Positions 27,360 to 52,436 of a stretch of DNA of 64,000 nucleotides are shown in pieces. The DNA is from Bacteroidales bacterium (GTDB lineage: Bacteria > Bacteroidota > Bacteroidia > Bacteroidales > VadinHA17), in assembly GCA_041740815.1 (NCBI GenBank), contig JBGSLG010000192.1:382-64381 (forward strand), read 5' to 3'. Each line of letters opens with the position of its first letter. Position 1 is the stretch's first letter. Both the position numbers and the translations under genes were made by a program. The notes below the pieces were generated by a model, which was not told the DNA's origin, did no database searches, and saw only the letters and a list, made by a program, of their open reading frames with translations.

Positions 27360-27392
27360 AGGTTAGTTGGTTTTAAGTTATTTATATTTAGG

Positions 27393-29342: not shown

Positions 29343-29355
29343 GCATTCTGTTTTA

Positions 29356-30543
29356 TTACTGGTTATATCCAAGGTCTGCAAGTATCTCTTGCGGCGTCTT
29401 TGTTGTTCCCAGCCTGCGAACCTTGCGCTCATGGTAGAAATTGATTGTCAGGTCGGTGCGGTTGGTGATCATTCCGTCTGCCAGCGGAGCAGCTTTTCTG
29501 CCTGTCTCCGGTCCGAAATACTTATCCATCTGCTCAACCGTGTTGATGGAGTAGATGTTTGCCTTCAATCCTGCCGCATGAACCTTCTCTGCGAAAGCAG
29601 GGGAGAGGCCGTCATTCTCATCACCCAGGTTTGTACCGATGAACTGTGCGCCGCACTCCTTCGCGAAAGCGATGATCTCATCAGTCACCTCGTCTTTGGC
29701 GAACTCGTTGGTCTTCGGGTTGCCGATGAGGAAACTGGCAAGCACCTTCTCTCCAAAAACCCTTTTGAAATTCATCATCCCCGGGCGCGAGAATGTCTGG
29801 ACAAGTATTTTGCCCCTGGTGTTTCCAACGTTGACTTTGTCCTCCTTAAAAAAGGGCTCTTCAGCACTTATCTCATCACCCTCCAGCGGGTTCCACCCGA
29901 ACCTTGTCAGCTCATCATATACCTGTTCCTCCAAACCGGGGTAGACATCCGGAATCTTTGCTTCGATATAAATCCCGGGCCTGTTGCCGTTGTCCGACGG
30001 ATCAGCTTCATATTCAAAGTGCAGGACGCCCGTCTCATCTCTCGTGAACACACGGTTACCGTTCGCATCACGTTTTATTCTTTTGCCTTCGGCGATGCGG
30101 AATACATCTTCAAATACCAGCACGTTCAGGCCTGCGAAGCTCAGCCGTGCCTGTTCAGGATTCTTATTGTTAAAGGCGCTGCCGGCATCGAGCTGCATTA
30201 TCTCTTCCCAGGTGAAGCTGCTGATGGGATCAGCTTCTCTTCCGGGGAACTTCTCTGCCACGTCGGTTGTGCGTTTGAAGGTCTTGTCGTGCATGATGAT
30301 CAGCACGCTGTCTTTTGACCTGTGCACGTCGAGCTCCATATAGTCAGCTCCCGTGTTCCGTGCCCAGCGAAAGGCTGCCTCGGTAAGCTCCGGAGCCCAG
30401 TAGATGGTTCCGCGGTGGGCTATCACAGCGTTGTCAGGCATATAATCCTGCACTTTTCCCGTTGCGGGTGCATCCTTTGACGCGCATCCTGCCAGCAGGG
30501 CTGCCAGCAACGCGGTATAAACAACTGCTCTCTTCATCATCAT
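29356..30543 (-). CDS. Glycerophosphodiester phosphodiesterase (GDPD family) lipoprotein
   Basis: Lipobox LLAGCAS. GDPD motifs are VIAHRGTIYWAPELT, YMELDVHRSKDSVLIIMHD and IYIEAK. Confidence 0.85.
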   Translation of the reverse strand: MMMKRAVVYTALLAALLAGCASKDAPATGKVQDYMPDNAVIAHRGTIYWAPELTEAAFRWARNTGADYMELDVHRSKDSVLIIMHDKTFKRTTDVAEKFPGREADPISSFTWEEIMQLDAGSAFNNKNPEQARLSFAGLNVLVFEDVFRIAEGKRIKRDANGNRVFTRDETGVLHFEYEADPSDNGNRPGIYIEAKIPDVYPGLEEQVYDELTRFGWNPLEGDEISAEEPFFKEDKVNVGNTRGKILVQTFSRPGMMNFKRVFGEKVLASFLIGNPKTNEFAKDEVTDEIIAFAKECGAQFIGTNLGDENDGLSPAFAEKVHAAGLKANIYSINTVEQMDKYFGPETGRKAAPLADGMITNRTDLTINFYHERKVRRLGTTKTPQEILADLGYNQ

Positions 30544-30546
30544 GTA

Positions 30547-31476
30547 TCATTTGGGGTTAGCTCTGTTCTGTCTTATTTTCCAATCCTCTGTGTGAAACTT
30601 CACCTTCGGGTCCCTGACATCATCGCATTTTACTATCAGTGCGCCCTCTTTCTCCCAGTAGGATTTAACCGTTTGTCCGGCCATAGGGCCGTCTTCCGGG
30701 CCGCGCACCGTCACATCATCAGGATTGACCACAATCTTCAGGCCGGCTGACTCATTGATCATATCCATGTCGCCACGGCTGTTACCGCCCACTATCAGCG
30801 GGGTTGTCTTTATAAATGTCTCTATCGTATGCGCCTTGCCGTCGTCCTGCGGGATGGGAGGAATTATCTCACCCGTTGTGACGCCGTCCCTGATAACACA
30901 TTTGGCGCCCACAATGTTGACATTTGAGATGCCGAACTCTTCTGCAACAAACTTCTGGTATAGTATCTCAGGCGAAGCGGTCAGTATGTACACTTCGAAG
31001 CCGTATTCCTTCAGGTTGGCAATCAGCTGCTTCATCTCGGGATAAAACTTACCCTGGTATGATTCGCGATAGCAGTCATAACCGATGGTCTCTATCTCTT
31101 CCGGTGTCAGACCGGCGAGGAAATGAACCCGGTCCTCAACATAAGCCTTGCCAACATTGTCGCCATTCTTTACCATCCGGTCGAGGATTTTCAGTTTTTC
31201 CCTGGCATCCTTGTCATTCCTCTCTTTCAGCACATTATCAGCATAGCGATAGAGGGCTTCATCAGCCAGGTAATATGGCACCTGACCGAAGGTGGTGCCG
31301 TCGCAGTCAAACACTGCAACCTTGCGCACTGTCATGGGGATGGTTCCGTTGAGGAATCCTTCAATCTGGTCATTGATCTCTTCAGACCATCCGTAAATCT
31401 GACGGTAGGTCTGGGCATCAAGTGTCGCCGTGAGGCCAATGATCAGAAACAGTGCTGTTGAGATGAGTCTCTTCAT
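30547..31476 (-). CDS. Exported HAD-superfamily phosphatase
   Basis: Signal peptide MKRLISTALFLIIGLTATLDAQ. HAD motif I is VAVFDCDGT (DxDxT), motif II ILTAS and motif IV GGNSRGDMDM. Confidence 0.7.
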   Translation of the reverse strand: MKRLISTALFLIIGLTATLDAQTYRQIYGWSEEINDQIEGFLNGTIPMTVRKVAVFDCDGTTFGQVPYYLADEALYRYADNVLKERNDKDAREKLKILDRMVKNGDNVGKAYVEDRVHFLAGLTPEEIETIGYDCYRESYQGKFYPEMKQLIANLKEYGFEVYILTASPEILYQKFVAEEFGISNVNIVGAKCVIRDGVTTGEIIPPIPQDDGKAHTIETFIKTTPLIVGGNSRGDMDMINESAGLKIVVNPDDVTVRGPEDGPMAGQTVKSYWEKEGALIVKCDDVRDPKVKFHTEDWKIRQNRANPK

Positions 31477-31488
31477 ATTTTTCAGTTA

Positions 31489-32940
31489 TTATCCGAGGTA
31501 TGTTGCTTTTTCTTTTTTCCATGTGGTTGCCGAGAAGACAGCTGCAAGAATGCTTGCTACGATCATTATCCAGAAGGTTGCATTCCAGCCGAGGGTTACA
31601 TTATCTGCCACAGCTCCGATGAGCACCTTTGAGAGCAGGGCATCGCCTATAAGGTATCCGAAGAGACCAACGAAGCCGGCTGCGGTGCCTGCGGCATTTT
31701 TCGGCACCAGGTTGATTGCCTGAACACCTATGAGTGCCACCGGACCGTAGATAAAGAAGCCGATGGCTATCAGGGCGGAGTAGACCACGGTGACCCTTGT
31801 AGAGTCAGGATCTGTTGAAAATACCTCTGAGAGAAAGGATGCTACCGGAGCTGCCTGCCAGTAGAGGATGACGCTCAGCAGCACAAGAAGCATAAAGATC
31901 ACGTTTGCCGGTGCACATCTGCCCTTGAAGACTTTTGATGAGATCCATCCGATCAGTATCATACCGGGGACGCCCGCATAGTTATGCAGTGAGAATGCCA
32001 TCTTACCCTGTTCGCTTGTCAGCAGACCGGCCTCCTCAGTATAGGTAGGAGCCCAGTCGGCGATGCCGTATCGTATGAGATAGACAAATACATTTGCCAG
32101 GGCTATCAGCCAGAGAATCCTGTTTTTGAAAATATACTTTACAAATAGTTCCTTAACAGGGATCTTTTTGTCTGAACTCATCTCTTTCTGTGCCGGGATA
32201 TCATTCCTGTATTTGTCTATTGAAGGCAGTCCGCACGACTGAGGAGTATCCCTGAGGGCCCACCAGCAGAAGAGGGCAATGATGAGCGCCACTGCGCTGG
32301 GCAGGACAAATACGGCTCTCCAGCTCTGTTCAACCATAACACCGCCGCCAATGTCAGCAATAAAAAAGCCACCGATAAGCAGTGTGCCCCACGCAGCCAG
32401 GTTGCCCATCAGTCCGCTGCCCACGGTGTGCGATGTGTTCCATACTCCCATCTTAAAGCTTCTCTCCTTATGCGAGAACCAGTGCACCATAACCCTTCCG
32501 CATGGAGGCCATCCCATACCTGCAAGCCAGCCTATTACAAGCATGAAGGCGAAGATGATGCCTACCGAGCTGGTAGCAAAGGGAAAAAGTCCGACGCACA
32601 TCATCAGTGAAGCTGACAGCACAAGCCCTATCACCAGAAACTTCCTTGCATCGGACCTGTCAGAGAGGGCTCCCATGAGGAACTTGCTGAAGGCGTAGGC
32701 GATTGAGATGGCAGACAGGGCGATGCCGAGCTGCAGCTTGGTGTATCCCAGCCCGCCGTTCTCCAGAGGCTGTATCATCCCGGGGATGGCAAGGGCGAGG
32801 TTCTTCCTGACAAGATAATAGGCTGCATATCCCAGAAATGCGCCGAGGAAGACCTGCAGGCGGAGTTTTTTGTAGGCAGCATCAACCTTCTCTTCCGGAA
32901 GGGGCTCTTTGTAGGGTGGCGGTTTCAGAAAGTTAATCAT
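31489..32940 (-). CDS. glpT: Glycerol-3-phosphate/phosphate antiporter (MFS, organophosphate:Pi antiporter family)
   Basis: It aligns by eye over long stretches with E. coli GlpT: FLGYAAYYLVRKN, ISIAYAFSKFLMGALSDRS, GMGWPPCGRVMVHWFS and LRDTPQSCGLPSI. Confidence 0.9.
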   Translation of the reverse strand: MINFLKPPPYKEPLPEEKVDAAYKKLRLQVFLGAFLGYAAYYLVRKNLALAIPGMIQPLENGGLGYTKLQLGIALSAISIAYAFSKFLMGALSDRSDARKFLVIGLVLSASLMMCVGLFPFATSSVGIIFAFMLVIGWLAGMGWPPCGRVMVHWFSHKERSFKMGVWNTSHTVGSGLMGNLAAWGTLLIGGFFIADIGGGVMVEQSWRAVFVLPSAVALIIALFCWWALRDTPQSCGLPSIDKYRNDIPAQKEMSSDKKIPVKELFVKYIFKNRILWLIALANVFVYLIRYGIADWAPTYTEEAGLLTSEQGKMAFSLHNYAGVPGMILIGWISSKVFKGRCAPANVIFMLLVLLSVILYWQAAPVASFLSEVFSTDPDSTRVTVVYSALIAIGFFIYGPVALIGVQAINLVPKNAAGTAAGFVGLFGYLIGDALLSKVLIGAVADNVTLGWNATFWIMIVASILAAVFSATTWKKEKATYLG

Positions 32941-33054
32941 AGGGTCACAGGTTGGGTTATTGGCTTTTCATGATTCCGGGGCCAAATATTATCATTCTTT
33001 GTTTTCTTCAGTTCTTTTAGTGATTAAGATAATGTTAAATCTTGCTACCACCGG

Positions 33055-34821
33055 TTATTCCATGTGATTGTCCCATGGCCAGGGCTTGACCTTCAGCCTG
33101 ACTGCCTCCTCCTCCCATTTTGCAGCCATCTTCTTCACCCTGTCAGGATACCTGGCTGCCAGGTTTTCGGTCTCCGAGGGGTCGCGTTCCAGGTCGTACA
33201 ACTCCCAGGCATTCTCATCCTCAGGATTGAATTTCATCTGTTCGCCGACCTTTGACACGAGCTTCCAGTTGTCTATCCTGATGGCCCTGTTACCTTCATG
33301 TTCCCATAAGAGGAACTCGCGGTCGAGCTTCTTTCCTGCAAAGGCGGGGAGCAGGCTGATTCCCTCAGGTGGTGTTGCCGCGTTGCCGTTGAACTCTTCA
33401 GGATAACTCACTCCTGCAAGCTCGAGGCATGTTGGCATGATGTCAATGAGGTGACCCGTCTGGGTGTTGATGACGCCTTTCTGCCGTAAGCCGGCCGGCC
33501 AGTGTACGATAAGGGGGGTGGTGATTCCTCCTTCATGGACCCACGACTTATAGAGCCTGAAAGGTGTGTTGCTTACGTTGGCCCAGTCTTCGCCATAGGC
33601 AACCCATGTGTCGGCGGGACCAGCCATGACACCCCTGCCGCTCCGGATGAACCGTCCGTCACGGGTGTATTCAGGTTTCCTGACAGTAAGGATCTGGTCG
33701 TATGAATAGGGTTTAAGCACCTTCTGCTCTTCGGTCAGCGGCTCTGTCATTCTGTTGGTGAGTACCGGCTCGGCGCAACCGCCGTTATCCTGCATATATA
33801 ATATAATGGTGTTATCAAGTTCTCCACTCTCATCCAGTGCGGCTATTATCCGTCCTATGCCCTGGTCCATCACGTCGATCATTGCGGCGTAGGTCTCCAT
33901 GCGGCGCGACTGCCACTCTTTCATCGGCTCATCTTCCCAGGCCTCTATAGTTTCCGGCCTCTGAGTGAGCCTGTGGTTCTCAGTCACCACACCCAGCTCT
34001 TTCTGCCTGTTGAACCGGAGCACCCTGAGTGAGTCCCAGCCAATGTCATATACTCCCCTGTATTTGGCTATTTCATCTTCAGGGGCATGAAGGGGCCAGT
34101 GGGCTGCATAGTATGCCACGTAACAGAAGAAGGGCTTGTCCTCATCACGTTCCCTGATATATTTCACCACGGTGTCGCTGATGGCGTCAGTGTAATAGAA
34201 GTTTTCACCCGGGGCTATGAAGTCATTGTTGCTTAACAGTGAAAAGGGATCCCAGTAGCTGGCTGAGCCGCTGAGGTTCCCGAAAAAACGTTCAAACCCA
34301 CGCTGCAAGGGCCAGTTGCTGGTGTCAACAGTAGTCTGGTCCGGGAGATTTGATGCATTCATCCCGTACAGGTGCCATTTGCCTGCCATCCAGGTCGAGT
34401 AACCGGCATCTTTCAGCAGTTCAGCAATTGTGGCGCTGTTATGGTTAAGATCATCAAGATAACCGGCTTCATCCCACAACGGCCTTGTTGCCAGGTGTCC
34501 CATTGCAGCCTGGTGGGGGTAAAGCCCGGTCAGGAGTGAGGCACGGCTGGGACTGCACCGCGCGGTGTTGTAGAAGTGTGTGAAGCGTATGCCGTTACCG
34601 GCCAGCCTGTCAAGATTGGGTGTCTTGATTTCAGAACCGTATGAGCCGATATCTGAATATCCTATGTCGTCTGCAAGAATTACAATAATGTTTGGCTTTT
34701 TCTCAGGAACCTCCGTCTGCCGTGGACTGCATGATGCCAGCAGGAATGCGCTAATGACCGAAGCAATGAGGCTTACTGTGCCGGCAGGCATTGCGAAGCT
34801 ATTGTTGCGTGATGTTTCCAT
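33055..34821 (-). CDS. Formylglycine-dependent sulfatase (arylsulfatase family) lipoprotein
   Basis: Lipobox LLASCSP. It has NIIVILADDIGYSD, the sulfatase signature CSPSRASLLTG and GKWH. Confidence 0.9.
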   Translation of the reverse strand: METSRNNSFAMPAGTVSLIASVISAFLLASCSPRQTEVPEKKPNIIVILADDIGYSDIGSYGSEIKTPNLDRLAGNGIRFTHFYNTARCSPSRASLLTGLYPHQAAMGHLATRPLWDEAGYLDDLNHNSATIAELLKDAGYSTWMAGKWHLYGMNASNLPDQTTVDTSNWPLQRGFERFFGNLSGSASYWDPFSLLSNNDFIAPGENFYYTDAISDTVVKYIRERDEDKPFFCYVAYYAAHWPLHAPEDEIAKYRGVYDIGWDSLRVLRFNRQKELGVVTENHRLTQRPETIEAWEDEPMKEWQSRRMETYAAMIDVMDQGIGRIIAALDESGELDNTIILYMQDNGGCAEPVLTNRMTEPLTEEQKVLKPYSYDQILTVRKPEYTRDGRFIRSGRGVMAGPADTWVAYGEDWANVSNTPFRLYKSWVHEGGITTPLIVHWPAGLRQKGVINTQTGHLIDIMPTCLELAGVSYPEEFNGNAATPPEGISLLPAFAGKKLDREFLLWEHEGNRAIRIDNWKLVSKVGEQMKFNPEDENAWELYDLERDPSETENLAARYPDRVKKMAAKWEEEAVRLKVKPWPWDNHME

Positions 34822-34930
34822 ATTCGATATTACTGATTGGCTCTTCTGTTGATCATTGTCATTTCATTTCCTGCGAACGGGCTGGATGGTTGTGTCATTT
34901 CACGGACCTCAGTCACCTTCGTCCACTACT

Positions 34931-36502
34931 TCATGCCATCACATAGGCACTGGCCATCTCCGTGTACTCCTTAACCTGATCCTGCTCCCATTTCTTGTCT
35001 CTGCCCAGTTCGGATGCGAGGACGGATGCGACTCTCGGAGCCAGGGCTATTGATGCTCTCGCATCAAGATAAAGGACGCGCACCCTGCGTGCAAGAACAT
35101 CATCAACGGTTCTTGCCATCTCTCTTCGCACTGCCCAGACCACTTCACCGACGGTAAAGTCAGTGGTTTGGTCAAGCTTCTCGGCGTAGTACGGATTCTC
35201 GCTCTGCATCTTAAGTATCGCTGCCTGGTCGCTGCCGTAAATATACATCCTGTCGTTCCTGTCAGGGTTCTCGAAGTAACCGTGTATCTTCAGTTTTGCG
35301 GTACGGCATTCCTTTACCGGCAGTTTTTTTGTCCTGACAGCAGTATTGACGGTATCCTCAGCCATCTTTCTGTAGGTGGTCCATTTGCCACCTGTGATGG
35401 TTACCAGGCCTGAGGGGGAGACAAGCATCTTGTGACTCCGTGAGATCTCTTTGGTTTTGTCACTGTCACTGCCGTTCTTTGGCGCCGCAAGGGGCCTCAG
35501 GCCTGCAAAGACGCAAAGCACATCACTGCGCTGCGGTTTCTTCTCCAGGAAGCGGCCTGCGGTCTCCAGTATGAAATCGACCTCCTCTTCCAGTGCTTTG
35601 GGTTCCAGGACAAACTCTTTGACGGGTATGTCGGTCGTTCCCAGTATGACGCGGTTGTGCCACGGTACCCCGAACATTACCCTGCCGTCACTTGTCTTGG
35701 GGATCATGATTGCATCGTCGCCCCCGAGGAAGCTTTTATCTACCACAAGGTGTACTCCCTGGCTGGGCCTGACGAGCGGTTTCTCGGACGGATTATCCAT
35801 CCTTATTATATTGTCGACGAAGATGCCTGTGGCATTGATGATGCATTTTCCTTCCGCCGTGAAGTTCACCCCGTCGAGTTCATCCCTGACCATGACGCCC
35901 GATATCTGGCCGTCTGAGCTCTTGAGCAGCTGTGTTACCTTTACATAGTTTACAACCGCGGCTCCCTGTTCGATGGCTGTCTGCATCAGGTTGACAGCCA
36001 GCCGTGAGTCGTCAAACTGTCCGTCGTGGTAGACCACACCGCCCCTCAGGTTTTCGCGGACAATGCGGGGTATTGACTTTATCACGGCGGCCCTGCTCAT
36101 TGGCAGCGAGCGCCCGAGGCTCATCCCTCCGGAGAGAAGATCGTAGAAGGTAAGGCCGATTGTATAGAAGGGCTTCTCCCACCACCTGTAGTTGCCGATA
36201 ATGAATCGCTGGTTCTTCACCAGGTGCGGTGCATTCTTTTGAAGGTAGCCTCGCTCACGCAGCGCCTCGCGCACCAGTGCCACATCGCCCTTCTGCAGGT
36301 ATCGCACCCCGCCGTGGACCAGTTTTGTGCTGCGCGATGAGGTGGCCTTGGCAAAATCCGACTGTTCAAGCAGTAGCGTGCTGTAACCCCTTGATGCGGA
36401 ATCAACGGCAATGCCCAGTCCGGTAGCGCCACCACCTATAATAATGAAGTCCCACTTCTGATTTGAGTCCTTCAGCCCGCGCAAAAAATCTTCTCTTTCC
36501 AA
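34931..36502 (-). CDS. glpD: FAD-dependent glycerol-3-phosphate dehydrogenase
   Basis: FAD-binding FIIIGGGATGLGIAVD. TSSRSTKLVHGGVRYL matches E. coli GlpD (TSSASSKLIHGGLRYL). 523 aa. Confidence 0.9.
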   Translation of the reverse strand: MEREDFLRGLKDSNQKWDFIIIGGGATGLGIAVDSASRGYSTLLLEQSDFAKATSSRSTKLVHGGVRYLQKGDVALVREALRERGYLQKNAPHLVKNQRFIIGNYRWWEKPFYTIGLTFYDLLSGGMSLGRSLPMSRAAVIKSIPRIVRENLRGGVVYHDGQFDDSRLAVNLMQTAIEQGAAVVNYVKVTQLLKSSDGQISGVMVRDELDGVNFTAEGKCIINATGIFVDNIIRMDNPSEKPLVRPSQGVHLVVDKSFLGGDDAIMIPKTSDGRVMFGVPWHNRVILGTTDIPVKEFVLEPKALEEEVDFILETAGRFLEKKPQRSDVLCVFAGLRPLAAPKNGSDSDKTKEISRSHKMLVSPSGLVTITGGKWTTYRKMAEDTVNTAVRTKKLPVKECRTAKLKIHGYFENPDRNDRMYIYGSDQAAILKMQSENPYYAEKLDQTTDFTVGEVVWAVRREMARTVDDVLARRVRVLYLDARASIALAPRVASVLASELGRDKKWEQDQVKEYTEMASAYVMA

Positions 36503-36706: not shown

Positions 36707-37471
36707 ATGAGAAACATCGCTCAGCGCCATAAGATAATACTTGCTGAACTTGAGAAGGATGGTTATGTGAGGGTCCGTGACCTCAGCGAACGGCTGGAGG
36801 TTTCGGAAGTTACGATTCGAAAGGATCTGAAAGAACTTGAGGAAAGGAGGATGCTGATCCGTACCCACGGCAGCGCAAGCCCCGTCAGCCCTCTGACAAT
36901 CGACCGCCATATTGATGAGAAGGAGAAAGTCCAGGTCAATGAAAAGACGAGGATTGCGGAAGCCGCTAACAGGTTGCTGCAAAAGAATGACAGGATTATC
37001 ATAGCCTCCGGAACAACTGTCCTGACCTTTGCCCAGAAGATGACAATCACCGATCCTATTACCGTAATCACTCCCTCGGTCAAGGTCTCGCTGATATTGA
37101 GCTACAAGCCGAACATTGACATTATCCAGCTCGGGGGATCACTGCGCAAAAGCTCTGCCTCGGTCATCGGTCCGTATGCCGAGAGCCTTCTTACCGAGAT
37201 GATGTGCAGCAAGCTCTTCATAGGAGTAGACGGGCTCGATCTGGACCTTGGACTCACAACCAGCAATATAGCCGAGGCTCACCTCAATCATTACATGCTG
37301 AACGCTGCGCAGGAGGTGATAGTTCTGGCTGACTCAACCAAGTTCGGCAAACGGGGATTCGGGAAGATCTGCAATCTTAACAAGGTGCACCATATAATCA
37401 CTGACAGGAATGCCCCTGCAAATATCATCCAGATCATCAGGGAAAAAGGTATCGAGGTCACACTTGTATAA
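36707..37471 (+). CDS. DeoR-family transcriptional regulator, GlpR-like by context
   Basis: HTH ILAELEKDGYVRVRDLSERLEVSEVTIRKDLKELE followed by a DeoR C-terminal sensor domain (IIASGTTV, FIGVDGLD). It is divergent from glpD across a 204-bp intergenic region. Confidence 0.85.
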   Translation: MRNIAQRHKIILAELEKDGYVRVRDLSERLEVSEVTIRKDLKELEERRMLIRTHGSASPVSPLTIDRHIDEKEKVQVNEKTRIAEAANRLLQKNDRIIIASGTTVLTFAQKMTITDPITVITPSVKVSLILSYKPNIDIIQLGGSLRKSSASVIGPYAESLLTEMMCSKLFIGVDGLDLDLGLTTSNIAEAHLNHYMLNAAQEVIVLADSTKFGKRGFGKICNLNKVHHIITDRNAPANIIQIIREKGIEVTLV

Positions 37472-37571
37472 TATGTATTGTACTATTTCTGAAGATTATT
37501 GAACCTGACCGGGTGCCACCTGATCAGGTTATTTAAATTTGTATTTACCGACACCATAAATAGTAATCATC

Positions 37572-40358
37572 ATGCCAGTAAAATCACCACTATCGGTTAT
37601 CGCAGCATTGCTGGCGGTAATGCTTGCCGGATGTTCAACCTCCAAAACTGCAGTTACGGGAGACCCTTCCGGCCGAACAGCAGGGGCCGAGAGGGAGTTT
37701 CGTGCAGCGTGGGTGGCCACCGTTGCCAACATCAACTGGCCCAGCAAACCGGGTCTCTCCGTTGAGGAGCAGAAGAGCGAAGCCTTAGCACTGCTGGATC
37801 TGCTATATAAAAACAACTTCAATGCAGTTGTATTCCAGGTGAGACCTCACGGTGACGCTATGTACAGGAGCGACCTCGAGCCATGGTCATATTACCTTAC
37901 CGGTGAAGCAGGCAAAGCCCCGGATCCTTATTATGATCCTCTGCAGTTCTGGATTGATGAGGCACATGCCAGGGGCATCGAGCTGCACGCCTGGCTTAAT
38001 CCCTATCGTGCTCATCATCCCGCAGCAGGAGAGGTGACCGATGCTTCCATCGTCAGGACACGCCCTGACCTGGTCCTGAAACTCGATGTCGAGAACTACT
38101 GGTGGATGGACCCGGCCCTGAAGGGCACACAGGATCACTCATACAATGTGGTGATGGACCTTGTACGCAGGTACGACCTTGACGGAATCCATTTCGACGA
38201 CTACTTCTATCCCTATCCCGACTATAACAATTTCAAGGATTTCCCGGATGACAAGAGCTGGCAGGCATACCAGGCCGGCGGCGGCAAGCTATCACGTTCC
38301 GACTGGAGGAGGGACGCCGTCAATGTATTTATTGAGAGACTCTATAAGGGCATCAAGGCTGAGAAGCCATGGGTGAAATTCGGACTCAGCCCCTTCGGCA
38401 TATGGCAGCCCTTTAACCCTCCTGCCATCGGAGGCGGATTCAACCAGCACGAGACCCTCTATGCCGATGCAAAGCTGTGGCTCAACAAGGGGTGGATCGA
38501 CTATTACTCGCCGCAGCTTTACTGGCCGGTAAACCAGATAGCCCAGAGCTACCCGGTGCTGCTGGGTTGGTGGAAGGAACAGAACCTGAAGGGACGTCAC
38601 CTGTGGCCGGGAATCAGCATAGGGCTGCAGCCTGTATCAAGGGCTGCCGATGAGACCGTCAACCAGATCATGATCACCAGGGGTCTTCTTCCGGAGAGCC
38701 CGGGAGTGGTGCACTGGAGCATCGGCCCGCTGGCAAGCTCACCTGAGCTGGTGAAAGCTATTGCCGAAGGCCCATACAGGAGAAAGGCCCTGGTGCCTCC
38801 CTCACCATGGCTCGATACAAATGCGCCTGCTGCACCCGGAGTGACAACCAAGGCTGAGGACGGCCGACTGCTTGTCTCATGGACTCATCCAAACCCTTCT
38901 GAGGTGGGCCGCTGGGTGGTCTATTACCGGTATGGCTCACAGTGGAACCAGAACATCCACGGAAATAGTGTCACAGATGATGCAATCCCTGCCTTCATCC
39001 CCAACCGTACTTTCCTTGCACGCACACCGCGTGAAAATGTTAAAAGCGGCGGGCAGGCGCTCATACGCCTTGACAGCATCGGTGTATCGGCTGTGGACCG
39101 TTTCGGGAATGAGAGTATGATAAAGAAGATGGCGGTGACGGAGTTCACTGTTGCCGACGCGCCTCCGTTGGAGGGAGTGCTGGCGGAGTACTATGACGGC
39201 ATGAAGCGACCGCCGGTACCGATGCCAGCCGTGACCCCCGGCATAAATGTGCTCATTGATGAACATCTTGACCTGATCAGGGGCAAGAGGGTAGGCCTGA
39301 TAACCAACCCGTCGGCTGTCGGAGCTGACATGAGAAGCGTGGTTGACATTCTCGCATCCACAGAAGGTGTAAATCTGGTGGCTCTGTTTGGCGCTGAGCA
39401 CGGCGTGCGTGGTGCTCTGCAAGGCAGGATATCCGGTGAGGGTGAACCTGATCCGGTGACAGGCATACCGGTTTACAGCCTGTACGGCGACTCGTGGGCT
39501 CCGAAACAGGAGTGGCTCGACAGCCTCGACGTGATGCTGTTCGACATCCAGGGAGTGGGCTCGGCATGGTACACATTCAAGTTCTCGATGTCGTGGGCCA
39601 TGGAAGCATGCGCCAAATCCGGCATCCCCTTCATCGTCCTTGACAGGCCCAACCCGCTTGGTGGCCGCGTGGTTGAGGGACCAATGCATGACACAATAAG
39701 TATATACAGGCACCGGCTGCCGCTGCGCCACGGAATGACCTACGGCGAGCTCGCAACGATGTGGAATGAGACAGAAGGCTACGGCGCTGACCTGACAGTC
39801 ATTAAGATGAAAGGGTGGCGGCGCAGCATGATGTGGGATGCAACAGGAATGATGTGGGTGATGCCATCACCGAATATTGACAACTGGGAGACAGCGGTTG
39901 TCTATCCGGGACAGTGCCTCTTCGAGAGAACCAATATGTCGGAAGGAAGGGGCATCACCAAGCCTTTCCTGATTACCGGAGCACCCTGGGTCAATGCCGA
40001 AAAAGCTGCCGATGATCTTAACTCAAGGGGAATAAGCGGAGCATGGTTCAGACCGGTGTACTTCATTCCCCGCTCTGCCGGGACAGGCAATACCCGCAGA
40101 AATAAGCCATGGAACGAGATGTGCGGTGGTGTTGAGATAATGCTTACTGACCCCGCCGCATTCCGGTCAGTGGAAGCATCACTCCATATTATTGACGCAT
40201 ACAGGAAGACCAGTCCGGATTCACTGGTATGGTCGCCGCCGCTGTTGATGCGGCAGCTCAACGAACCAGGCGTCACCGTGGAAGAGGTGGTGAAAGCCTG
40301 CCAGGATGATGTTAGTGAGTTCATGGAAGTAAGACAGAAATACCTGCTGTACAGATGA
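37572..40358 (+). CDS. Fusion lipoprotein: GHL10 (DUF187/YngK-like) glycosyl-hydrolase-like domain plus DUF1343/NamZ-type exo-beta-N-acetylmuramidase domain
   Basis: Lipobox VMLAGCS. The N-half carries EFRAAWVATVANINWPS, IELHAWLNPYR and GIHFDDYFYP. The C-half, from about 39235, carries KRVGLITNPSAVG, LFGAEHG, FDIQGVGSAWYTF and VLDRPNPLGG, as I remember them from YbbC/NamZ proteins. Confidence 0.75.
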   Translation: MPVKSPLSVIAALLAVMLAGCSTSKTAVTGDPSGRTAGAEREFRAAWVATVANINWPSKPGLSVEEQKSEALALLDLLYKNNFNAVVFQVRPHGDAMYRSDLEPWSYYLTGEAGKAPDPYYDPLQFWIDEAHARGIELHAWLNPYRAHHPAAGEVTDASIVRTRPDLVLKLDVENYWWMDPALKGTQDHSYNVVMDLVRRYDLDGIHFDDYFYPYPDYNNFKDFPDDKSWQAYQAGGGKLSRSDWRRDAVNVFIERLYKGIKAEKPWVKFGLSPFGIWQPFNPPAIGGGFNQHETLYADAKLWLNKGWIDYYSPQLYWPVNQIAQSYPVLLGWWKEQNLKGRHLWPGISIGLQPVSRAADETVNQIMITRGLLPESPGVVHWSIGPLASSPELVKAIAEGPYRRKALVPPSPWLDTNAPAAPGVTTKAEDGRLLVSWTHPNPSEVGRWVVYYRYGSQWNQNIHGNSVTDDAIPAFIPNRTFLARTPRENVKSGGQALIRLDSIGVSAVDRFGNESMIKKMAVTEFTVADAPPLEGVLAEYYDGMKRPPVPMPAVTPGINVLIDEHLDLIRGKRVGLITNPSAVGADMRSVVDILASTEGVNLVALFGAEHGVRGALQGRISGEGEPDPVTGIPVYSLYGDSWAPKQEWLDSLDVMLFDIQGVGSAWYTFKFSMSWAMEACAKSGIPFIVLDRPNPLGGRVVEGPMHDTISIYRHRLPLRHGMTYGELATMWNETEGYGADLTVIKMKGWRRSMMWDATGMMWVMPSPNIDNWETAVVYPGQCLFERTNMSEGRGITKPFLITGAPWVNAEKAADDLNSRGISGAWFRPVYFIPRSAGTGNTRRNKPWNEMCGGVEIMLTDPAAFRSVEASLHIIDAYRKTSPDSLVWSPPLLMRQLNEPGVTVEEVVKACQDDVSEFMEVRQKYLLYR

Positions 40359-42466
40359 GAAGATATAAAATATTACTGCTACTGGCAGCGGCTGCGCTGG
40401 CTGGATGCAGTACGGCCAGAAAGACACAGGAGACCGCGGTTACAGAACCCCCGGTTCCTGCCCTGGCGGAAAGTCATAAGAAACCGCAGGTTGTTGAACT
40501 TGACCTGACGGCCCTGTTTGACACTGTCAGTTCAGGTCGGAAGGTTTCTCTCAATAAAGGGGCCATGGTACTGACAACTGACAGTGAAGGCATAATTACC
40601 TTTGCGATGCCTGAGAAAGACACCCTTATACTGTCGCCTGATCCGTGTCCGGGGCTTAAGTCGCCCTGCAGCTTTGTCATCCCCCTGGCGGGATGGTTCG
40701 TTCCTTACAGTTATTCAGTTAAGCCCGACGGCACGGTGGAACGCAAATCGCCCTGGGTAGAGTTTCGCAGGACACCGGAGCCGGTAACAAACCAGTCCCA
40801 GTTCGATTTTCTCTGCAAGAGCGAGTACCCTGCCACAGTTAGTATTAACGGAACTGAAGTGAAGCAGTATAAGACTGGCATCTTCTTCAGTACGGTTAAG
40901 TTCACTGAGGGAGTCAACAGGGTGAGGGCAGAAGCAACTTATCCCGATGGCCGGACAGCCTCGCATGAGATGGAATTTGTATATGAGAAGAGGGACCTGA
41001 GCAGGCAGCCATACCCGCTCTGGATAGACAGGCGTTCGTTTGAGCCGGCTGCCGACGTGGTGCTGCTTCCCGGCGAGGTGGTGAAGGTCAGCTTTCGCGC
41101 TTCGAAGGGGCAGGAGGCCTGGCTGGATATCAGGCCCGGGAAGAGAACCCTGAAGTGCAGCCGTGAGGACTTTGACGACTACAGTGTCTACCGGGCCGAA
41201 CTGCCTGTGCGTGGCTTTGAGGATGGCTCTGTCACTACCCTCAGCGTCAGGCTGGTGCCGGCAGCAGGCGCGCCGGTGAGGGATTCATACAGGCCTGACA
41301 TTGCAAGAACAGTCACAGTGAAAAATCCGGAAGAGTTTCCACTTTTAAGAGTGAAAAACGAGTATTCCAGGCTGGTATACAACCTGGGTGCACCCAGGCT
41401 GGGCGGCCCTGTGAGATCAGAGCTAGTGCCCGGCGTGATACTCAAGTCCAGCGGGAAAATCGGTCGCAACTACAGGATCAGGCTGAGCAACACCGAGACA
41501 GGGTTCATCAGTGAGGATGATGTTGAGGTAATTTCCGGTAGCACGGTTCAGCCTCTATACAGTGTGACAAGCATGTCATGCGGTCCGGCTGCCGGCGCTG
41601 ATATCGTCTCAATACCCTGGCTCGAGTCGGTACCCTACGAGGTATTCCCTGATCCCGATGGTAAAAGACTTGTAGTAACACTCTTCGGCGTTGAGTCGGC
41701 GGCCACATGGGTCAGTCACAGGACCGGCTGCGAGGTTGTTGACAAGCTCACCTGGGAGCAGACCTCACCTGAGACCTTTCGGGTTTATGTGAACCTGAAG
41801 ACGGAAAACATATGGGGTTATGACATCAGACCGGTTGGCAGGAGCCTCGTGCTGCGCATCAAGTACCCGCCTGCATATGACCTTGCAGCTGAGAAGCCAC
41901 TCACCGGACTGAAGATTGCCATTGAGGCCGGTCATGGCGGGTCCGGCACCGGGGCCATCGGACTATCAGGACTGGTTGAGAAGGATATCAATCTTGACCT
42001 CTCATTCAGGCTGGGGGAGTTGTGTGCATCGATGGGGGCTGAGGTGCTGCAGGTTCGTGATTCTGACAGGGATATGGGGTTGATAGAGAAGCGGAGTATT
42101 GCCATTGAATCCGGAGCTGATATGCTGATAAGCATTCATGCCAATGCCGGCGGCAGGGGTTATCTCTCTGTGGCTGGTACTAGCACCTACTGGCACAATC
42201 CCTTCTGGGCTCCTCTGGCACAGACCATCTATGAAAGGCTGCTTGAGACCGGGCTTCCGGAGTTTGGTGTTGTGGGTTCATTTAACTACACCGTGACCAG
42301 GGCATCGCAGATGCCTGCCGTGCTGGTGGAGCAGGCCTTCATGACCCATGCCGAAGACGAGGAGAAGCTCGCAGATCCCGTCTTCCGCCAGCTGATGGCA
42401 GAGAAGATCTGTGCGGGGGTGCTTGATTACCTGGGCAACCTTAAAAGCCGGGAATCAGATTTATAG
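40355..42466 (+). CDS. N-acetylmuramoyl-L-alanine amidase (Amidase_3) lipoprotein with an N-terminal region of about 500 aa and unknown function
   Basis: Lipobox ALAGCST. The start codon overlaps the upstream stop (ATGA at 40355-40358). The C-terminal amidase motifs are KIAIEAGHGG, DMLISIHANA and PAVLVEQAFMTH. Confidence 0.85.
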   Translation: MRRYKILLLLAAAALAGCSTARKTQETAVTEPPVPALAESHKKPQVVELDLTALFDTVSSGRKVSLNKGAMVLTTDSEGIITFAMPEKDTLILSPDPCPGLKSPCSFVIPLAGWFVPYSYSVKPDGTVERKSPWVEFRRTPEPVTNQSQFDFLCKSEYPATVSINGTEVKQYKTGIFFSTVKFTEGVNRVRAEATYPDGRTASHEMEFVYEKRDLSRQPYPLWIDRRSFEPAADVVLLPGEVVKVSFRASKGQEAWLDIRPGKRTLKCSREDFDDYSVYRAELPVRGFEDGSVTTLSVRLVPAAGAPVRDSYRPDIARTVTVKNPEEFPLLRVKNEYSRLVYNLGAPRLGGPVRSELVPGVILKSSGKIGRNYRIRLSNTETGFISEDDVEVISGSTVQPLYSVTSMSCGPAAGADIVSIPWLESVPYEVFPDPDGKRLVVTLFGVESAATWVSHRTGCEVVDKLTWEQTSPETFRVYVNLKTENIWGYDIRPVGRSLVLRIKYPPAYDLAAEKPLTGLKIAIEAGHGGSGTGAIGLSGLVEKDINLDLSFRLGELCASMGAEVLQVRDSDRDMGLIEKRSIAIESGADMLISIHANAGGRGYLSVAGTSTYWHNPFWAPLAQTIYERLLETGLPEFGVVGSFNYTVTRASQMPAVLVEQAFMTHAEDEEKLADPVFRQLMAEKICAGVLDYLGNLKSRESDL

Positions 42467-42564: not shown

Positions 42565-43152
42565 ATGATTGTGGTTATGACAGGGGAAGATTTACATATA
42601 TGGCTCAGGGTTAAGGACGACGATCCGAAGGCATTCGAGGTGCTCTTTCGGAAGTACTTTTACACGCTTTGCCTTCTTTCAAAGAGGTATACACGGGATA
42701 TAACCACCTCAAGGGAGGTGATCCAGGACCTTTTTATACACCTATGGGAAAACAGACAGGACATAAGAATTACTTCATCATTCCGGTCTTACCTGGCTTC
42801 AGCTGCCAGGTTTAATTCAATCAGGCGAGTTAAGGCTGACCAGAAGGTGGTGATTTTTACAGATATACTGCCGGACAACAGCCAGGAGTTGACTGATCAT
42901 CTCGAATATGCAGAGTTGCAGGCTGCAATAGTAAAGGCCATTGACGGACTCCCGGAGCAATGCCGGAAGGTTTTTGAACTTAGCAGGTTTGAGCAGCTTA
43001 AGCACTCAGAAATTGCATCAAAGCTCGATATCTCCGTTAAGACCGTTGAAGCCCATATTGGAAAAGCATTAAAATTGATACAGAAGGAGATCGGATCGAT
43101 TTACAGTTTAATGGTTCTCGTTGGACTTATCGCACTGAAGTTTTTTTTATAA
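42565..43152 (+). CDS. ECF-type RNA polymerase sigma-70 factor
   Basis: Region 2 is EVIQDLFIHLWEN and region 4 is SEIASKLDISVKTVEAHIGKALK. An alternative start is at 42577. A FecR-like gene follows. Confidence 0.9.
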   Translation: MIVVMTGEDLHIWLRVKDDDPKAFEVLFRKYFYTLCLLSKRYTRDITTSREVIQDLFIHLWENRQDIRITSSFRSYLASAARFNSIRRVKADQKVVIFTDILPDNSQELTDHLEYAELQAAIVKAIDGLPEQCRKVFELSRFEQLKHSEIASKLDISVKTVEAHIGKALKLIQKEIGSIYSLMVLVGLIALKFFL

Positions 43153-43217
43153 AATTCCCGGATCACACTAAGGGTACTGCCTTGTTTTTTGTTCACACAT
43201 TATAGAGAGAGATTATT

Positions 43218-44327
43218 ATGAGTAAGAGATTATTTGAGGAATTCACTTTTGAATCCCTGATCAGGTTTATTGAAGGAGTAGCGGATGCAGATACCGTCAG
43301 GGTCATTAATGAATGGATTGAAGCCACTGAGGGCAACAGGAAAATCTATTCACAGATAAAAGAGGTATGGCTCAATCGTGCAGAACTGTCAGGACTGCTT
43401 GGTGGTACGTTGGAGAGGGACTTTGAAAATGTTGTCAGGGAGATCAATTTGCATCAGCAGGAGAAGAAAAGCAGGCTGCCTTTGAGGGCTTCCCTGTCAT
43501 TAATCAAAAAGATTGCTGCTGCCGGGTTGATTATCATTGCAATAGGGGCAGCATACTTTGCCGGGCGCAGGGCGACAACACCAGGGAATGTGGCAGAAAG
43601 CGGTTACAATGAATTGATAGTGCCCAAGGGACAAAGATCCAAAGTTGTTCTTTCAGACGGAACCTCAATATGGCTGAATGCGGGAAGCAGGCTCAGGTTT
43701 CCGAGCGATTTCAGGGGCGATACAAGGGAGGTTTGGCTTGACGGGGAGGGATTGTTCAATGTTTCGAAAGACAGTTCCAAACTCTTTTATGTTCATACCA
43801 CGGATCTCGATGTTAAGGTCCATGGCACGATCTTTAACCTGAAGGCCTACTCCTTCGAGGATATTGTCGAGACAACCGTGGTGGAAGGGCTGGTCAGTTT
43901 TGAGTCGAAGACAAACAAGGCTATTATGAAGGATGCTGTCTTCCTGGAACCAAATCATAAGGCTGTTTTTGTCAGGAGTGCTGATGCCAGGGTAACTGAG
44001 GAGGTAAAGAGGGAGATCAACAGACCGATTGAGCCAAGGAGGCTAATAGTATCCGAACCGATAAAGGTTGAGCCTGTAATATCATGGGCTGAAGGCAGAC
44101 TGATCTTCACTGATGAAACATTGGGAAACATTGTTGCGAAGCTTGAGAGGAAATATGATGTGCAGATCCTGATCGATAATGAAAGAATAAAAAACCTAAA
44201 GTATACAGGGGTTCTAAAAAGTGTATCAATAGAGCAAGCCCTCAAAGCTTTGCAGCTCACTACCGGGATTCAATACACTATTAACGAGAACTACATAAGA
44301 ATATCCGAGAAAAAAGCCAAAATGTAA
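43218..44327 (+). CDS. FecR-family anti-sigma factor
   Basis: It has one central transmembrane helix (IAAAGLIIIAIGAAYFA), the FecR motif VVLSDGTSIWLNAGSRLRF and a C-terminal domain ending IQYTINENYIRIS. Confidence 0.85.
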   Translation: MSKRLFEEFTFESLIRFIEGVADADTVRVINEWIEATEGNRKIYSQIKEVWLNRAELSGLLGGTLERDFENVVREINLHQQEKKSRLPLRASLSLIKKIAAAGLIIIAIGAAYFAGRRATTPGNVAESGYNELIVPKGQRSKVVLSDGTSIWLNAGSRLRFPSDFRGDTREVWLDGEGLFNVSKDSSKLFYVHTTDLDVKVHGTIFNLKAYSFEDIVETTVVEGLVSFESKTNKAIMKDAVFLEPNHKAVFVRSADARVTEEVKREINRPIEPRRLIVSEPIKVEPVISWAEGRLIFTDETLGNIVAKLERKYDVQILIDNERIKNLKYTGVLKSVSIEQALKALQLTTGIQYTINENYIRISEKKAKM

Positions 44328-44497
44328 ATCTTATAAACCCTAAACCAACCTAACCTCCATGCCTATGACATAATCAAAAAGAAAAAGGACCGGATCATGC
44401 GCCAACATTACCGGTCCCAGTCTGATGTTAATAACCCATATCCTGTCTTGAATGAACCGGGGTATGAATTGAACTAACATTAAAACCCTACAAAACT

Positions 44498-47400
44498 ATG
44501 AAAAAAAATCAAGATGCAGAGTATCCATCGCATCAATTCCGAATCCTAAAACTACTGCTAATTATGAAAATAAGCTTTTTTCTGTTAGCGATCAACGTTT
44601 TTGCCATATCTGCCGCCACCTTCGGACAGGGGAGCAAACTTACAATTGATATGAAAAATGCCACAGTCAAGGAAATTCTCAACGAGATTGAAAGACAGAC
44701 GGATCTTTCCTTCATATATAAATCAGATCTGATCAATCCTGAAAACAAAGTTACGGTCACCGCCGAGGATGCAAGTGTGCTTGAAGTCCTCGCAGCCCTC
44801 TTTGCAGATGAGAAGATATATCCTGAGATAATTGACAATTCTCTTATTGTGCTGCTACCTGAGAGACAGTTAAGTCAGCAACTGAAAGTGAGAGGAAGAA
44901 TAACCGACTCGTCCTCCGGTGAATTATTGCCGGGTGTGAACATTGCAATTAAGGGTACAACCATTGGTACGATAAGTGATCTTAACGGAGCCTATGAACT
45001 TGCAATACCTGATCCGAACGGTATAATTGTATTCACTTTCATAGGGTATCAATCCCAGGAGATGGAAGTAGCCGGAAGAGAGGTAATCGATGTTTCACTT
45101 GTCCTTGAGGAAATGTCACTTGATGAAGTAGTTGTGATTGGCTACGGAACCCAAAAGAAGAGCCTTGTAACTGGGGCAATTTCGAGTGTCACTGCTGCAG
45201 AAATGGAGAACTCATCTGTTTCCCGGCCGGAACAGGCTTTACAGGGAAGAAGTGCCGGTGTTCAGGTAATCACTACTTCAGGTTCTCCAGGTGGTGAACT
45301 TAAGGTCAGGATCAGGGGTTACAGCTCGAATGGTTCTGCAGACCCGCTGTATATAGTTGATGGAGTAAAGACCAATAATATTAGTTACCTCGCCCCGCAG
45401 GACATAAGTAATATGGAGGTGCTCAAGGACGCAGCATCCTCTGCCATCTATGGAGCAGAAGGCGGTAATGGTGTCATAATAATTACTACCAAGTCAGGTA
45501 AAGCCGGATACAGTTCCGTCGATTATGACTTCCAGTATGCAAGCAATAAAGTCGGAAAAACCCCTGACATGCTGAATTCTGAGGAATATGCAAACTATTA
45601 CAATGAAGCCGGATTGTTTACCATTAATCCCTCTGACATAAAGGAGGATAACGACTGGATCAATGGCATTTTTGAGCCTGCGAATGCCATGAGACACCAT
45701 TTATCTTTCAGTAGCGGCACGGGCAAATCAAACTTTCTGCTTTCAGCCACTGCTCTGACCCAGGACGGTATCGTTGTAATGGACAAGGACAAATACAGCA
45801 GATACACATTCAGGATCAATGCAGACAGCAAGGTCAAAGATTGGCTGAAGGTCGGGAACAATGTTTCATTTGGCTACACCCAGCGAAATTCAATAACTGA
45901 GGACAATGAAAGCAGAGGCGTTATCACATCTGCACTATTGATGGATCCGCTTACTCCTGTGGCTTACTACGATGGCGTTATTCCCGGTCATGTACAGTTA
46001 CTTATTGATCAGGGCAAAAAGTTGGTAAAGGACGAAGACGGCAATATCTACGGGAACTCACAATACATAAGCAAGACACCGATGAACCCTTATGTTGGCC
46101 TATCCAACAGAAGAGAGGAGACACTGGGTTATATTCTTCAGGGGAGTTTGTTTGCCGAACTGACACCCATTAAGCATATTTCATACACATCCAGACTGGG
46201 CTACGAAATTGGTAGCTGGAATGCAAAGTCATGGGAGCCGGTTTATTACTATAATTCATATAATAACTACAATGACGCTACGAGTGTAACGGTAACAAAC
46301 ACAGACAGCTACTACTGGCTATGGGAAAATTTTGCCAGCTATACCAATAATTTCAACGGACATAATATCAGTTTTCTGGCAGGGATGTCAGCGGAAGCAA
46401 GAAACAGAAGGTTCACCCAGGCTTCAGGAGGTCCGATGATCAAAGAAGACGATAACTATGCAGAGTTGAGTTTCCTTGCAACACAGGACAACAGCGCCGT
46501 GGCAGGTCAGCCATACCTTGATAAGAAAGCGTCATACTTTGGCAGGATTTCGTATGATTACCAGGGCAGGTACCTGTTGCAGGCGACAGTCAGAAGAGAT
46601 GGAGCCGGAACTTCATTGTTACCGCCGGAAAACAGGTGGGGCGTCTTCCCCTCATTTTCTCTTGGATGGGTGTTTACTGAGGAATCCTTTTTCCCGAAGA
46701 GCTTTCTCTCTTATGGTAAACTCAGAGCCAGCTGGGGAGAAAATGGAAGCCTTTCAAACCTGACGAACTACATGTACAGCTCCTCGATATACTCCACATA
46801 CCTGCTGTATCAGTTAGGCAATGGCAATATGTACACATCTTCTGTACCTAACCAGCTGAATAACCCTGAACTGACCTGGGAAACAAGCGTACAGACAGAC
46901 ATCGGACTTGATCTGAGAATGCTCAATGACAGGATTAATGTTACTATGGATTATTTCAAAAAGGTAACAACGGACCTTATCACTCCGAACACTCCTCCAC
47001 TTGAGTCAGGGAACAATGCGTCTGCAGTAAATGGTGGTGATGTGACAAACAGCGGATTTGAGTTCGAGCTGGAATTCAGGAAGTCTGTGGGTGATTTCAC
47101 TTACAGTATCAGTGGTAACTTTGCAACCCTGCAGAACGAGGTCACCTACCTGAATCCCACCATACAAAGGATAAGTGGTGGTGAGACAAGTGGTGCATCA
47201 ACATTTTATACTGCATTTGAAGAAGGACTGCCAGTATGGTATTTCAGAGGATACCAGACTAAAGGCATCGATCCTGTTACGGGACAACCAAATTTTGTCG
47301 ATCAGAATGATGATTTGATAATCAATGAGAATGACAAGACTTTTATAGGGAGTGCAATACCCAGCATTACTTATGGTGCGAACATAAACCTTGCATATAA

Positions 47401-47839: not shown

Positions 47840-47850
47840 AACTATCAGAT

Positions 47851-49452: not shown

Positions 49453-49587
49453 TTTTTTGCTGAACATTTAACCAATAATTGTGTACTATCCGATTTGAGA
49501 AAAGTCTCCTGACTGACAACGTCATGAAAGTGGTAAAGCCATCGGGAGACTTCTCAATCCGTTTATCTAATATTTAACTGACGAGAT

Positions 49588-52362: not shown

Positions 52363-52436
52363 TAGTGTTTAAGGAATATTCGGTCAGGAAATTGGCTCTT
52401 GAAAATAATCAGATAAACTACTTGATATAGATCAAT

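Follow-up and report, generated by a model that had tools for sequence, protein, structure and literature searches.

Introduction

Cwp19 of C. difficile is a GHL10 protein whose degradation of peptidoglycan, scored as lytic transglycosylase activity, was reported in 2018 (PMC6016235); its TIM-barrel structure, published together with a list of probable active-site residues, has PgaB as its closest structural neighbor (PMC5765458). A second GHL10 protein, DigH of E. coli, is described in PMC12288456, which cites Yakhnina & Bernhardt 2020, as a hydrolase that is specific for denuded glycan and acts after the amidases. In the GH171 family, BsNamZ of Bacillus subtilis is a secreted exo-beta-N-acetylmuramidase in which Glu92, located at the strand 2 tip, is putatively catalytic and Arg279 is exposed (PMC8054146). 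Here, we describe a gene in which these two families are joined. It lies in a 64,000-nucleotide stretch of DNA from a Bacteroidales bacterium of the VadinHA17 lineage (GenBank assembly GCA_041740815.1, contig JBGSLG010000192.1, positions 382 to 64,381 of the forward strand; this whole stretch is called the window below), where a single open reading frame (ORF) at 37572..40358 (+) encodes a 928-residue lipoprotein with a GHL10 domain in its N-terminal half and a NamZ domain in its C-terminal part.

An initial annotation of this DNA, made from the sequence alone, had recognized the fusion and proposed that its GHL10 domain acts on peptidoglycan; its background account of the B. subtilis enzyme agrees with the published one (PMC8054146). 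Following up that annotation, we consider it probable that the product is an outer-membrane lipoprotein that faces the periplasm and has two intact glycosidase domains, that its gene is co-transcribed and translationally coupled with an amidase gene, and that the two products would form a three-step line for dismantling the peptidoglycan backbone. What is new is the gene arrangement, namely, the fusion and its coupling to the amidase, since both enzyme families are already known to act on the cell wall. No description of a GHL10-NamZ fusion was found in the searchable literature; this architecture and its amidase coupling are thus undescribed, although the combination, of two families whose class of substrate was known, is a predictable one.

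The Fusion Protein

The ORF starts with ATG and contains no internal stop codon. Its product begins with MPVKSPLSVIAALLAVMLAGC, a lipoprotein signal peptide (37572..37634, +) with the lipobox LAGC, and the lipidated Cys21, followed by STSKT, is unchanged across 44 aligned homologues. Every hallmark motif quoted in the initial annotation was located in the translation: EFRAAWVATVANINWPS at residues 42-58 and HAWLNPYR at 139-146 in the GHL10 half, and RVGLITNPSAVG at 573-584, LFGAEHG at 605-611, DIQGVGSAWYTF at 658-669, and VLDRPNPLGG at 689-698 in the NamZ half. The domain identities and borders were confirmed by Pfam matches far above the cut-offs, to GHL10 (PF02638; residues 42-339, E 7e-59, 199.8 bits against a cut-off of 27.9), NamZ_N (PF07075; residues 574-772, E 1e-68, 231 bits against 26.9), and NamZ_C (PF20732; residues 777-927, E 5e-35, 121.9 bits against 25); no NCBIfam model matches the protein. 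On the DNA, the GHL10 TIM-barrel catalytic domain, which is homologous to Cwp19 and DigH and spans residues 42 to approximately 400, occupies 37695..38771 (+), the Rossmann-like catalytic domain NamZ_N (GH171) occupies 39291..39887 (+), and the auxiliary domain NamZ_C, with its E791-G-R793-G motif, occupies 39900..40352 (+).

A sequence search of the PDB gave Cwp19 (5OQ2; residues 32-397, E 1.7e-68) for the N-terminal part and two Bacteroides fragilis DUF1343 structures, BfNamZ1 (4K05, E 1.9e-65) and BfNamZ2 (4JJA, E 1.4e-39), for the C-terminal part. Structure prediction, suggested as a check in the initial annotation, points the same way: with a full-length AlphaFold model built from 44 closely related sequences, the same three entries lead the Foldseek search. 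For the GHL10 domain, within which the AlphaFold confidence is uneven, 5OQ2/5OQ3 come out on top with a target template modeling (TM) score of 0.71-0.73 and 35% identity, in accordance with a Cwp19-like TIM barrel. The model also reveals a beta-sandwich of the Ig/FN3-like type between the two halves (residues ~415-530; 38814..39161, +), with strands at residues 423-521 and a predicted local distance difference test (pLDDT) score of 82-92. Residues 401-573 have no Pfam match even at E <= 1, and the same beta-sandwich accompanies stand-alone GHL10 homologues at 27-44% identity (tblastn).

Could the single ORF be an artefact in which an error of assembly or sequencing has fused two genes? In three relatives (L020, L029, and L033), broken alignments do resemble local sequencing errors. 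However, the best 120 database matches (68-93% identity), which the Joint Genome Institute (JGI) labels “YbbC (DUF1343)/YddW (UPF0748)”, each carry the same three domains in ~926-928 residues; more than 120 clusters (90% identity; several sources) share the unbroken ~928-residue architecture, and the uninterrupted ORF recurs on 27 independent contigs of species-representative metagenome-assembled genomes (MAGs). Neither a stop codon nor a frameshift separates the domains, and the inter-domain region is a conserved folded domain in its own right. The comparative data refute the artefact, the chance of which is negligible, and the intact lipoprotein reading frame described in the initial annotation stands.

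The GHL10 Half

The N-terminal domain is ~35% identical to both Cwp19 and DigH. For DigH, whose gene in strain MG1655 encodes a clear GHL10 member (Pfam E 6e-136), the identity is 34% over 332 residues (E 1e-59). The fusion retains the active-site residues W47, Q89, W141, R146, D209, D210, Y211, S273, Q315, Y317, and G347, that is, the counterparts of W36, Q77, W127, R132, D195, D196, Y197, S250, Q295, Y297, and G328 of Cwp19. This set is identical in the fusion, Cwp19, DigH, and 13 further homologues, and variation is confined to the Phe/Ser cis-peptide pair, F367/S368 in Cwp19 and W382-S383 in the fusion, which thus keeps S368 and has Trp in place of F367.

From this identity and the conserved active site, the GHL10 half is predicted to act on peptidoglycan glycan strands, and we regard that part of the initial annotation as right. 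The same annotation had also stated that GHL10 proteins have no established substrate and that the fusion offers a rare functional handle on the family. These two statements do not hold, because Cwp19 (PMC6016235, PMC5765458) and DigH (PMC12288456, with its GHL10 membership confirmed here) were already peptidoglycan-active members; what the fusion adds is confirmation of a substrate class that was known before, and it does not open an uncharacterized family.

It might be argued that the GHL10 half acts instead on another polysaccharide, such as an alpha-glucan or a polymer like poly-N-acetylglucosamine (PNAG), and that its fusion to NamZ is functionally meaningless. DogH, a GHL10 protein of Deinococcus, is reported to hydrolyse starch, and PgaB is, after all, the nearest structural neighbor of Cwp19. 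Yet DogH is only ~21% similar to Cwp19, whereas the domain studied here is ~35% identical to the two peptidoglycan-active members and keeps their full active-site set; furthermore, a MurNAc-L-Ala amidase (MurNAc, N-acetylmuramic acid) is linked to GHL10 in two phyla, and the link between GHL10 and NamZ occurs in two orders. We consider this explanation very improbable.

The NamZ Half

The residues E609, H610, and G611 are unchanged in the clade alignment and are common to 4K05, 4JJA, and stand-alone NamZ proteins; in the AlphaFold model, they directly follow the beta-strand 600-606. The NamZ half also keeps the DRPN motif, H720, N768, E791, and R793, of which R793, in the G-R-G motif, is unchanged in the clade and common to BfNamZ2 (4JJA) and most stand-alone NamZ proteins, with Val at this position in BfNamZ1 (4K05).

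As to the subtype, the NamZ half is nearer to BfNamZ1 overall (224 bits, against 139 for 4JJA), but it has H720, N768, and R793 in common with 4JJA, where 4K05 has Y, H, and V. BsNamZ displays the same pattern, resembling the NamZ1 branch overall and 4JJA in its active-site residues (PMC8054146). Because its active-site residues are those of 4JJA and not those of 4K05, the NamZ half may be a MurNAc-releasing enzyme, an assignment of low certainty. Of the Tannerella enzymes, TfNamZ2 releases MurNAc, whereas the product of TfNamZ1 is GlcNAc-MurNAc (GlcNAc, N-acetylglucosamine), and the authors of that study state that the choice between MurNAc and disaccharide release is not predictable from sequence (bioRxiv 10.1101/2021.12.02.470905). 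According to the same study, all the TfNamZ enzymes need peptide-free glycan and bear signal peptides, NamZ enzymes require a free lactyl carboxylate, and the pathway involves an “unidentified MurNAc-L-Ala amidase”. NamZ and NagZ jointly turn denuded oligosaccharides into monosaccharides (PMC13627109).

Both glycosidase domains of the fusion are, on the strength of these residues, likely to be active. One could suppose that one of them is catalytically dead and serves as a mere glycan-binding module for the other, as is apparently the case in P0122, a divergent fusion whose cluster includes a Saprospiraceae protein: its NamZ part is without E-H-G and several other conserved positions, NamZ_N is only partly detected, and it is probably an inactive pseudo-enzyme. 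The window protein and its clade, however, retain without variation every conserved active-site position of both families, so that a dead domain seems quite improbable here.

The Amidase Partner and the Probable Two-Gene Operon

The most informative part of the locus, which the initial annotation had missed, is the translationally coupled gene downstream. It encodes a second lipoprotein of 703 residues (40355..42466, +; lipobox LAGC, then STARK), and its ATG overlaps the TGA of the fusion gene (ATGA). Its C-terminal Amidase_3 (MurNAc-L-alanine amidase) domain (residues 521-689; nucleotides 41915-42421, +; Pfam E 1e-32, 114.1 bits) aligns end to end, over ~175 residues, with 5EMI, 4RN7, and 1JWQ, and only piecemeal with the longer AmiA/B/C type; AGHGG and SIHAN, spotted by eye, are its putative zinc-ligand motifs. 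Residues 1-510 of this partner (40355-41884) form a large region without a family that is conserved alongside the amidase domain across two phyla, with a weak Glucodextran_B-like match at residues 160-205; it may serve in targeting, regulation, or glycan binding.

The partner gene lies 3' of the fusion gene in all clade loci whose sequence extends far enough, with the ATGA overlap in 20 of 24 loci. In 11 loci, which belong to Saprospiraceae, Flexithrix, and Ignavibacteriota, the same amidase lipoprotein follows a stand-alone GHL10 gene and there is no NamZ. From this distribution, GHL10 plus amidase is the older module, and NamZ a late addition in one lineage. An even tighter linkage is seen in P0121 (L083:1330-5397), a 1355-residue fusion of GHL10, beta-sandwich, and amidase with 59% identity to the N-terminal half of the window protein and 49% identity over 649 residues to the window amidase; it comes from a single metagenomic (Logan) contig and may be real or a local error. 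Seven Ignavibacteriota loci (L037, L038, L042, L043, L045, L047, and L049) have a second GHL10 paralogue with 40-45% identity, which is situated ~5 kb upstream of the matched gene on the opposite strand.

We infer that the fusion and amidase genes form a separate two-gene operon, because the upstream context is lost in four loci (L014, L015, L084, and L085) in which the pair is kept, and because the spacer in front of the fusion gene contains a hairpin and a TAAATTTG box. The hairpin, an imperfect one of 29 nucleotides (37502..37530, +; stem AACCTGA.CGGGT/ACCTG.TCAGGTT) followed by a T-rich stretch, is possibly the terminator of the DeoR-family gene upstream; the folding z-score of the whole 100-nucleotide spacer is only -1.7. 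The box TAAATTTG (37534..37541, +), read from the sequence 30 nucleotides 5' of the fusion ATG, fits the Bacteroidetes -7 promoter consensus TAnnTTTG and is a putative promoter site.

Distribution of the Fusion

In a collection of species-representative genomes, the full-length fusion was found only in the loci L001-L033, all from uncultured environmental Bacteroidales labeled Bacteroidales, Rikenellaceae, or “Rikenella sp.”. The remaining 47 loci, from Saprospiraceae, Flexithrix, Chitinophagaceae, Ignavibacteriota, Balneolaceae, Chryseobacterium, and others, match residues ~1-520 only, that is, GHL10 and the beta-sandwich. A split version of the fusion was not seen, as no NamZ gene lies within 8 kb of the stand-alone GHL10 gene in these 47 loci (E <= 1e-8). 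When 1.84 billion cluster representatives were scanned exhaustively with HMMER, the GHL10-NamZ architecture occurred in two clusters only, P0038, which is the clade of the window, and the above-mentioned P0122 (L082:5720-8407), an 895-residue protein with 43% identity whose cluster includes the Saprospiraceae MAG protein NRB62034.1. At the P0122 locus, a divergent gene for a ROK-family kinase lies upstream, and no amidase gene adjoins.

Other representatives with matches in several stretches were considered as additional GHL10-NamZ fusions and rejected, since they proved to be tandem NamZ-NamZ or multi-GHL10 proteins. Five large proteins of this kind (P0128, P0129, P0197, P0240, and P0264) carry two tandem NamZ units together with SLH, LysM, FIVAR, or Ig-like domains; they have a Gram-positive-style look and represent a different way to multiply exo-muramidase modules.

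As to the survey of fused and adjacent domains proposed in the initial annotation, the fusion is intact in 27 species-level MAGs of one environmental clade, a divergent form exists in P0122, and no NamZ gene was found within 8 kb in the 47 GHL10 loci. In other words, the fusion is common inside one clade and rare across bacteria, a pattern that the initial annotation had not noticed.

Location in the Cell

In Bacteroidota, surface-exposed lipoproteins carry a cluster of acidic residues right after the lipidated Cys (PMC5080379). The residues that follow in the fusion (CSTSKT) and in the amidase (CSTARK) contain no such acidic export signal, and neither D nor E occurs at positions +1 to +5 in 42 of the 44 homologues. 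As controls, the SusD-like, BACON, and fasciclin lipoproteins encoded in the window do bear acidic clusters. Because both lipoproteins are without the signal, they are predicted to face the periplasm.

The initial annotation had concluded that the fusion places the activity outside the cytoplasm. Such a location is not distinctive: BsNamZ is secreted and the TfNamZ proteins have signal peptides, and on the GHL10 side an extracytoplasmic place is already normal, since YddW is labeled a lipoprotein and Cwp19 is a surface protein.

A different proposal would make the fusion a surface lipoprotein for foraging on foreign cell walls (necromass), the endo-acting front end of a polysaccharide-utilization system. 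Peptidoglycan scavenging has been proposed for Bacteroidetes NamZ (bioRxiv 10.1101/2021.12.02.470905), SusC/SusD loci for amino sugars and glycerophosphodiesters flank the operon, a GH20-PA14 gene lies 1.5 kb upstream in L084 and L085, and the amidase domain, which belongs to the compact CwlV/AmiC2 type, matches chains of ~180 residues end to end. However, neither protein has the acidic export signal seen in the SusD, BACON, and fasciclin lipoproteins encoded nearby in the window (PMC5080379). The conserved core consists of the fusion and the amidase only, with no SusC/SusD pair; the neighboring SusC/SusD loci differ between relatives, and the GHL10 and amidase pair is kept in lineages without any such context. 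Given the periplasmic prediction and a core that is free of a SusC/SusD pair, surface foraging is disfavored and, in our opinion, unlikely.

A Possible Pathway for Denuded Glycan

We therefore return to the periplasmic three-step line, of which we infer the substrates, the order of action, the orientation, and the source of the glycan. In the first step, the amidase would strip the stem peptides and leave denuded glycan. In the second step, the GHL10 domain would make internal cuts in the denuded strand, in the manner of DigH and Cwp19. In the third step, the tethered NamZ domain would trim MurNAc from the new non-reducing ends or from ends already trimmed of GlcNAc, alternating with a beta-N-acetylglucosaminidase, possibly a GH20 enzyme of a neighboring locus, so that monosaccharides become available for recycling or catabolism. 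The amidase would be the gatekeeper of this line, because DigH-type GHL10 enzymes and NamZ accept only peptide-free MurNAc, and this role would explain the tight translational coupling. The glycan could be either the cell's own septal or turnover glycan, by analogy with DigH, or imported fragments, by analogy with Tannerella. One might speculate further that the operon encodes a complete machine in the periplasm, through which denuded glycan is disposed of or salvaged, and that its wiring carries new information, but we put this forward only tentatively.

Several points weigh against the pathway. The export-signal rule is statistical, and surface exposure of the fusion is possible. No gene for MurQ, MurK, AmpG, or a GH3 NagZ occurs within the window. 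There is no agreed bond specificity for GHL10 enzymes: the activity of Cwp19 was scored as lytic transglycosylase, whereas for DigH PMC12288456 speaks of “either glucosaminidase or muramidase”. The starch-active DogH is a distant member of the family, and the transfer of function across the whole of GHL10 is therefore not automatic. The correspondence of E609 and R793 to Glu92 and Arg279 of BsNamZ was mapped via the description in the paper and not by alignment with BsNamZ. Finally, the AlphaFold model is mediocre (pLDDT 66.7; predicted TM score, pTM, 0.42) and says nothing on the cooperation of the domains; nothing is therefore concluded on domain packing or a shared cleft.

If the operon is indeed such a complete machine, the NamZ tether would make the most sense with GHL10 as an endo-N-acetylglucosaminidase, because an exo-muramidase like BsNamZ needs MurNAc at the non-reducing end, and this would bear on the bond specificity of DigH-type enzymes. 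The fusion offers a route to the question of which bond GHL10 enzymes cut, left open in the DigH literature. Because GHL10 is tied to the amidase and to NamZ across the lineages named above, comparative genomics agrees with experiment that GHL10 works on peptide-free peptidoglycan glycan. One protein and one partner make a compact system for dissecting endo/exo cooperation on denuded glycan, and they may represent the enzymes that carry out the amidase and endo-glycosidase steps when Bacteroidota turn over or salvage peptidoglycan.

Surroundings of the Operon

Upstream of the fusion gene in most clade loci, and absent from L014, L015, L084, and L085, is a gene for a DeoR-family regulator (36707..37471, +; HTH_DeoR and DeoRC; Pfam and NCBIfam), with AgaR/SrlR/GlpR-like matches that are all under the curated cut-offs. 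It is probably part of the divergent glycerol-3-phosphate cluster and not of the fusion operon. That cluster (22431-36502, -) encodes SusD, SusC, a metallophosphoesterase, GDPD, HAD, MFS, and sulfatase proteins, and an FAD-dependent (flavin adenine dinucleotide) glycerol-3-phosphate dehydrogenase. It looks like a glycerophosphodiester-utilization locus, possibly for teichoic-acid or phospholipid head groups, and is syntenic with the fusion operon in ~25 MAGs, the same four loci being the exceptions.

Farther upstream, a polysaccharide-utilization locus for amino sugars (2327-20109) comprises genes for LacI, SusC/SusD, fasciclin, NagB-like, heparinase II/III-like, and GH20 proteins, a SASA esterase, an SSF transporter, an amidohydrolase, and GH20-PA14. 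The locus directly abuts the operon in L084 and L085, its GH20-PA14 gene being the one mentioned above. The GH20 enzymes of the locus (two genes) are candidates to supply the missing glucosaminidase step.

Downstream, the locus 42565-53540 combines genes for an extracytoplasmic function (ECF) sigma factor and a FecR anti-sigma factor with those for SusC, SusD, a carboxylesterase, and two putative deacetylases of the YdjC-like type. Its GC content at third codon positions (GC3) is ~0.47, clearly below the 0.62-0.65 of the upstream genes. A transfer of the operon from elsewhere, as might be read from its higher GC, was rejected, because the GC3 of the operon (0.62-0.63) equals that of the genes before it, and the lower value belongs to the downstream ECF/SusC locus.

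Comparison with Known Systems

The divisome-localized DigH (YddW) resembles the fusion in its GHL10 domain, its identical active-site residues, and its lipoprotein-type N-terminus and, according to PMC12288456, acts downstream of amidases on denuded glycan, as is proposed for the present line. Unlike the fusion, it is a single-domain protein of 439 residues without beta-sandwich or NamZ, and its gene does not adjoin an amidase gene. Cwp19 (5OQ2/5OQ3) is the best structural and sequence match for residues 32-397 (TM 0.72) and degrades peptidoglycan, but it is a Gram-positive surface protein that is anchored by three CWB2 repeats and has no fused exo-enzyme; it acts on peptide-bearing peptidoglycan and yields anhydro-muropeptides.

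The fusion shares with the GH171 NamZ enzymes a secretion signal, the NamZ_N and NamZ_C domains, and the motifs E-H-G and G-R-G, and by homology it should likewise need a peptide-free substrate. The characterized NamZ enzymes are all stand-alone proteins of ~400 residues, whereas in the fusion NamZ is the C-terminal third of a lipoprotein. Finally, the NagZ-AmiE-NamZ set of B. subtilis (murQ operon) resembles the window operon in combining an amidase with exo-glycosidases that act on wall fragments outside the cytoplasm. In B. subtilis, these enzymes are encoded by separate genes and include no endo-acting GHL10 enzyme; at the window locus, there is no NagZ, MurQ, or transporter gene, and the amidase is a member of Amidase_3 with a large N-terminal extension.

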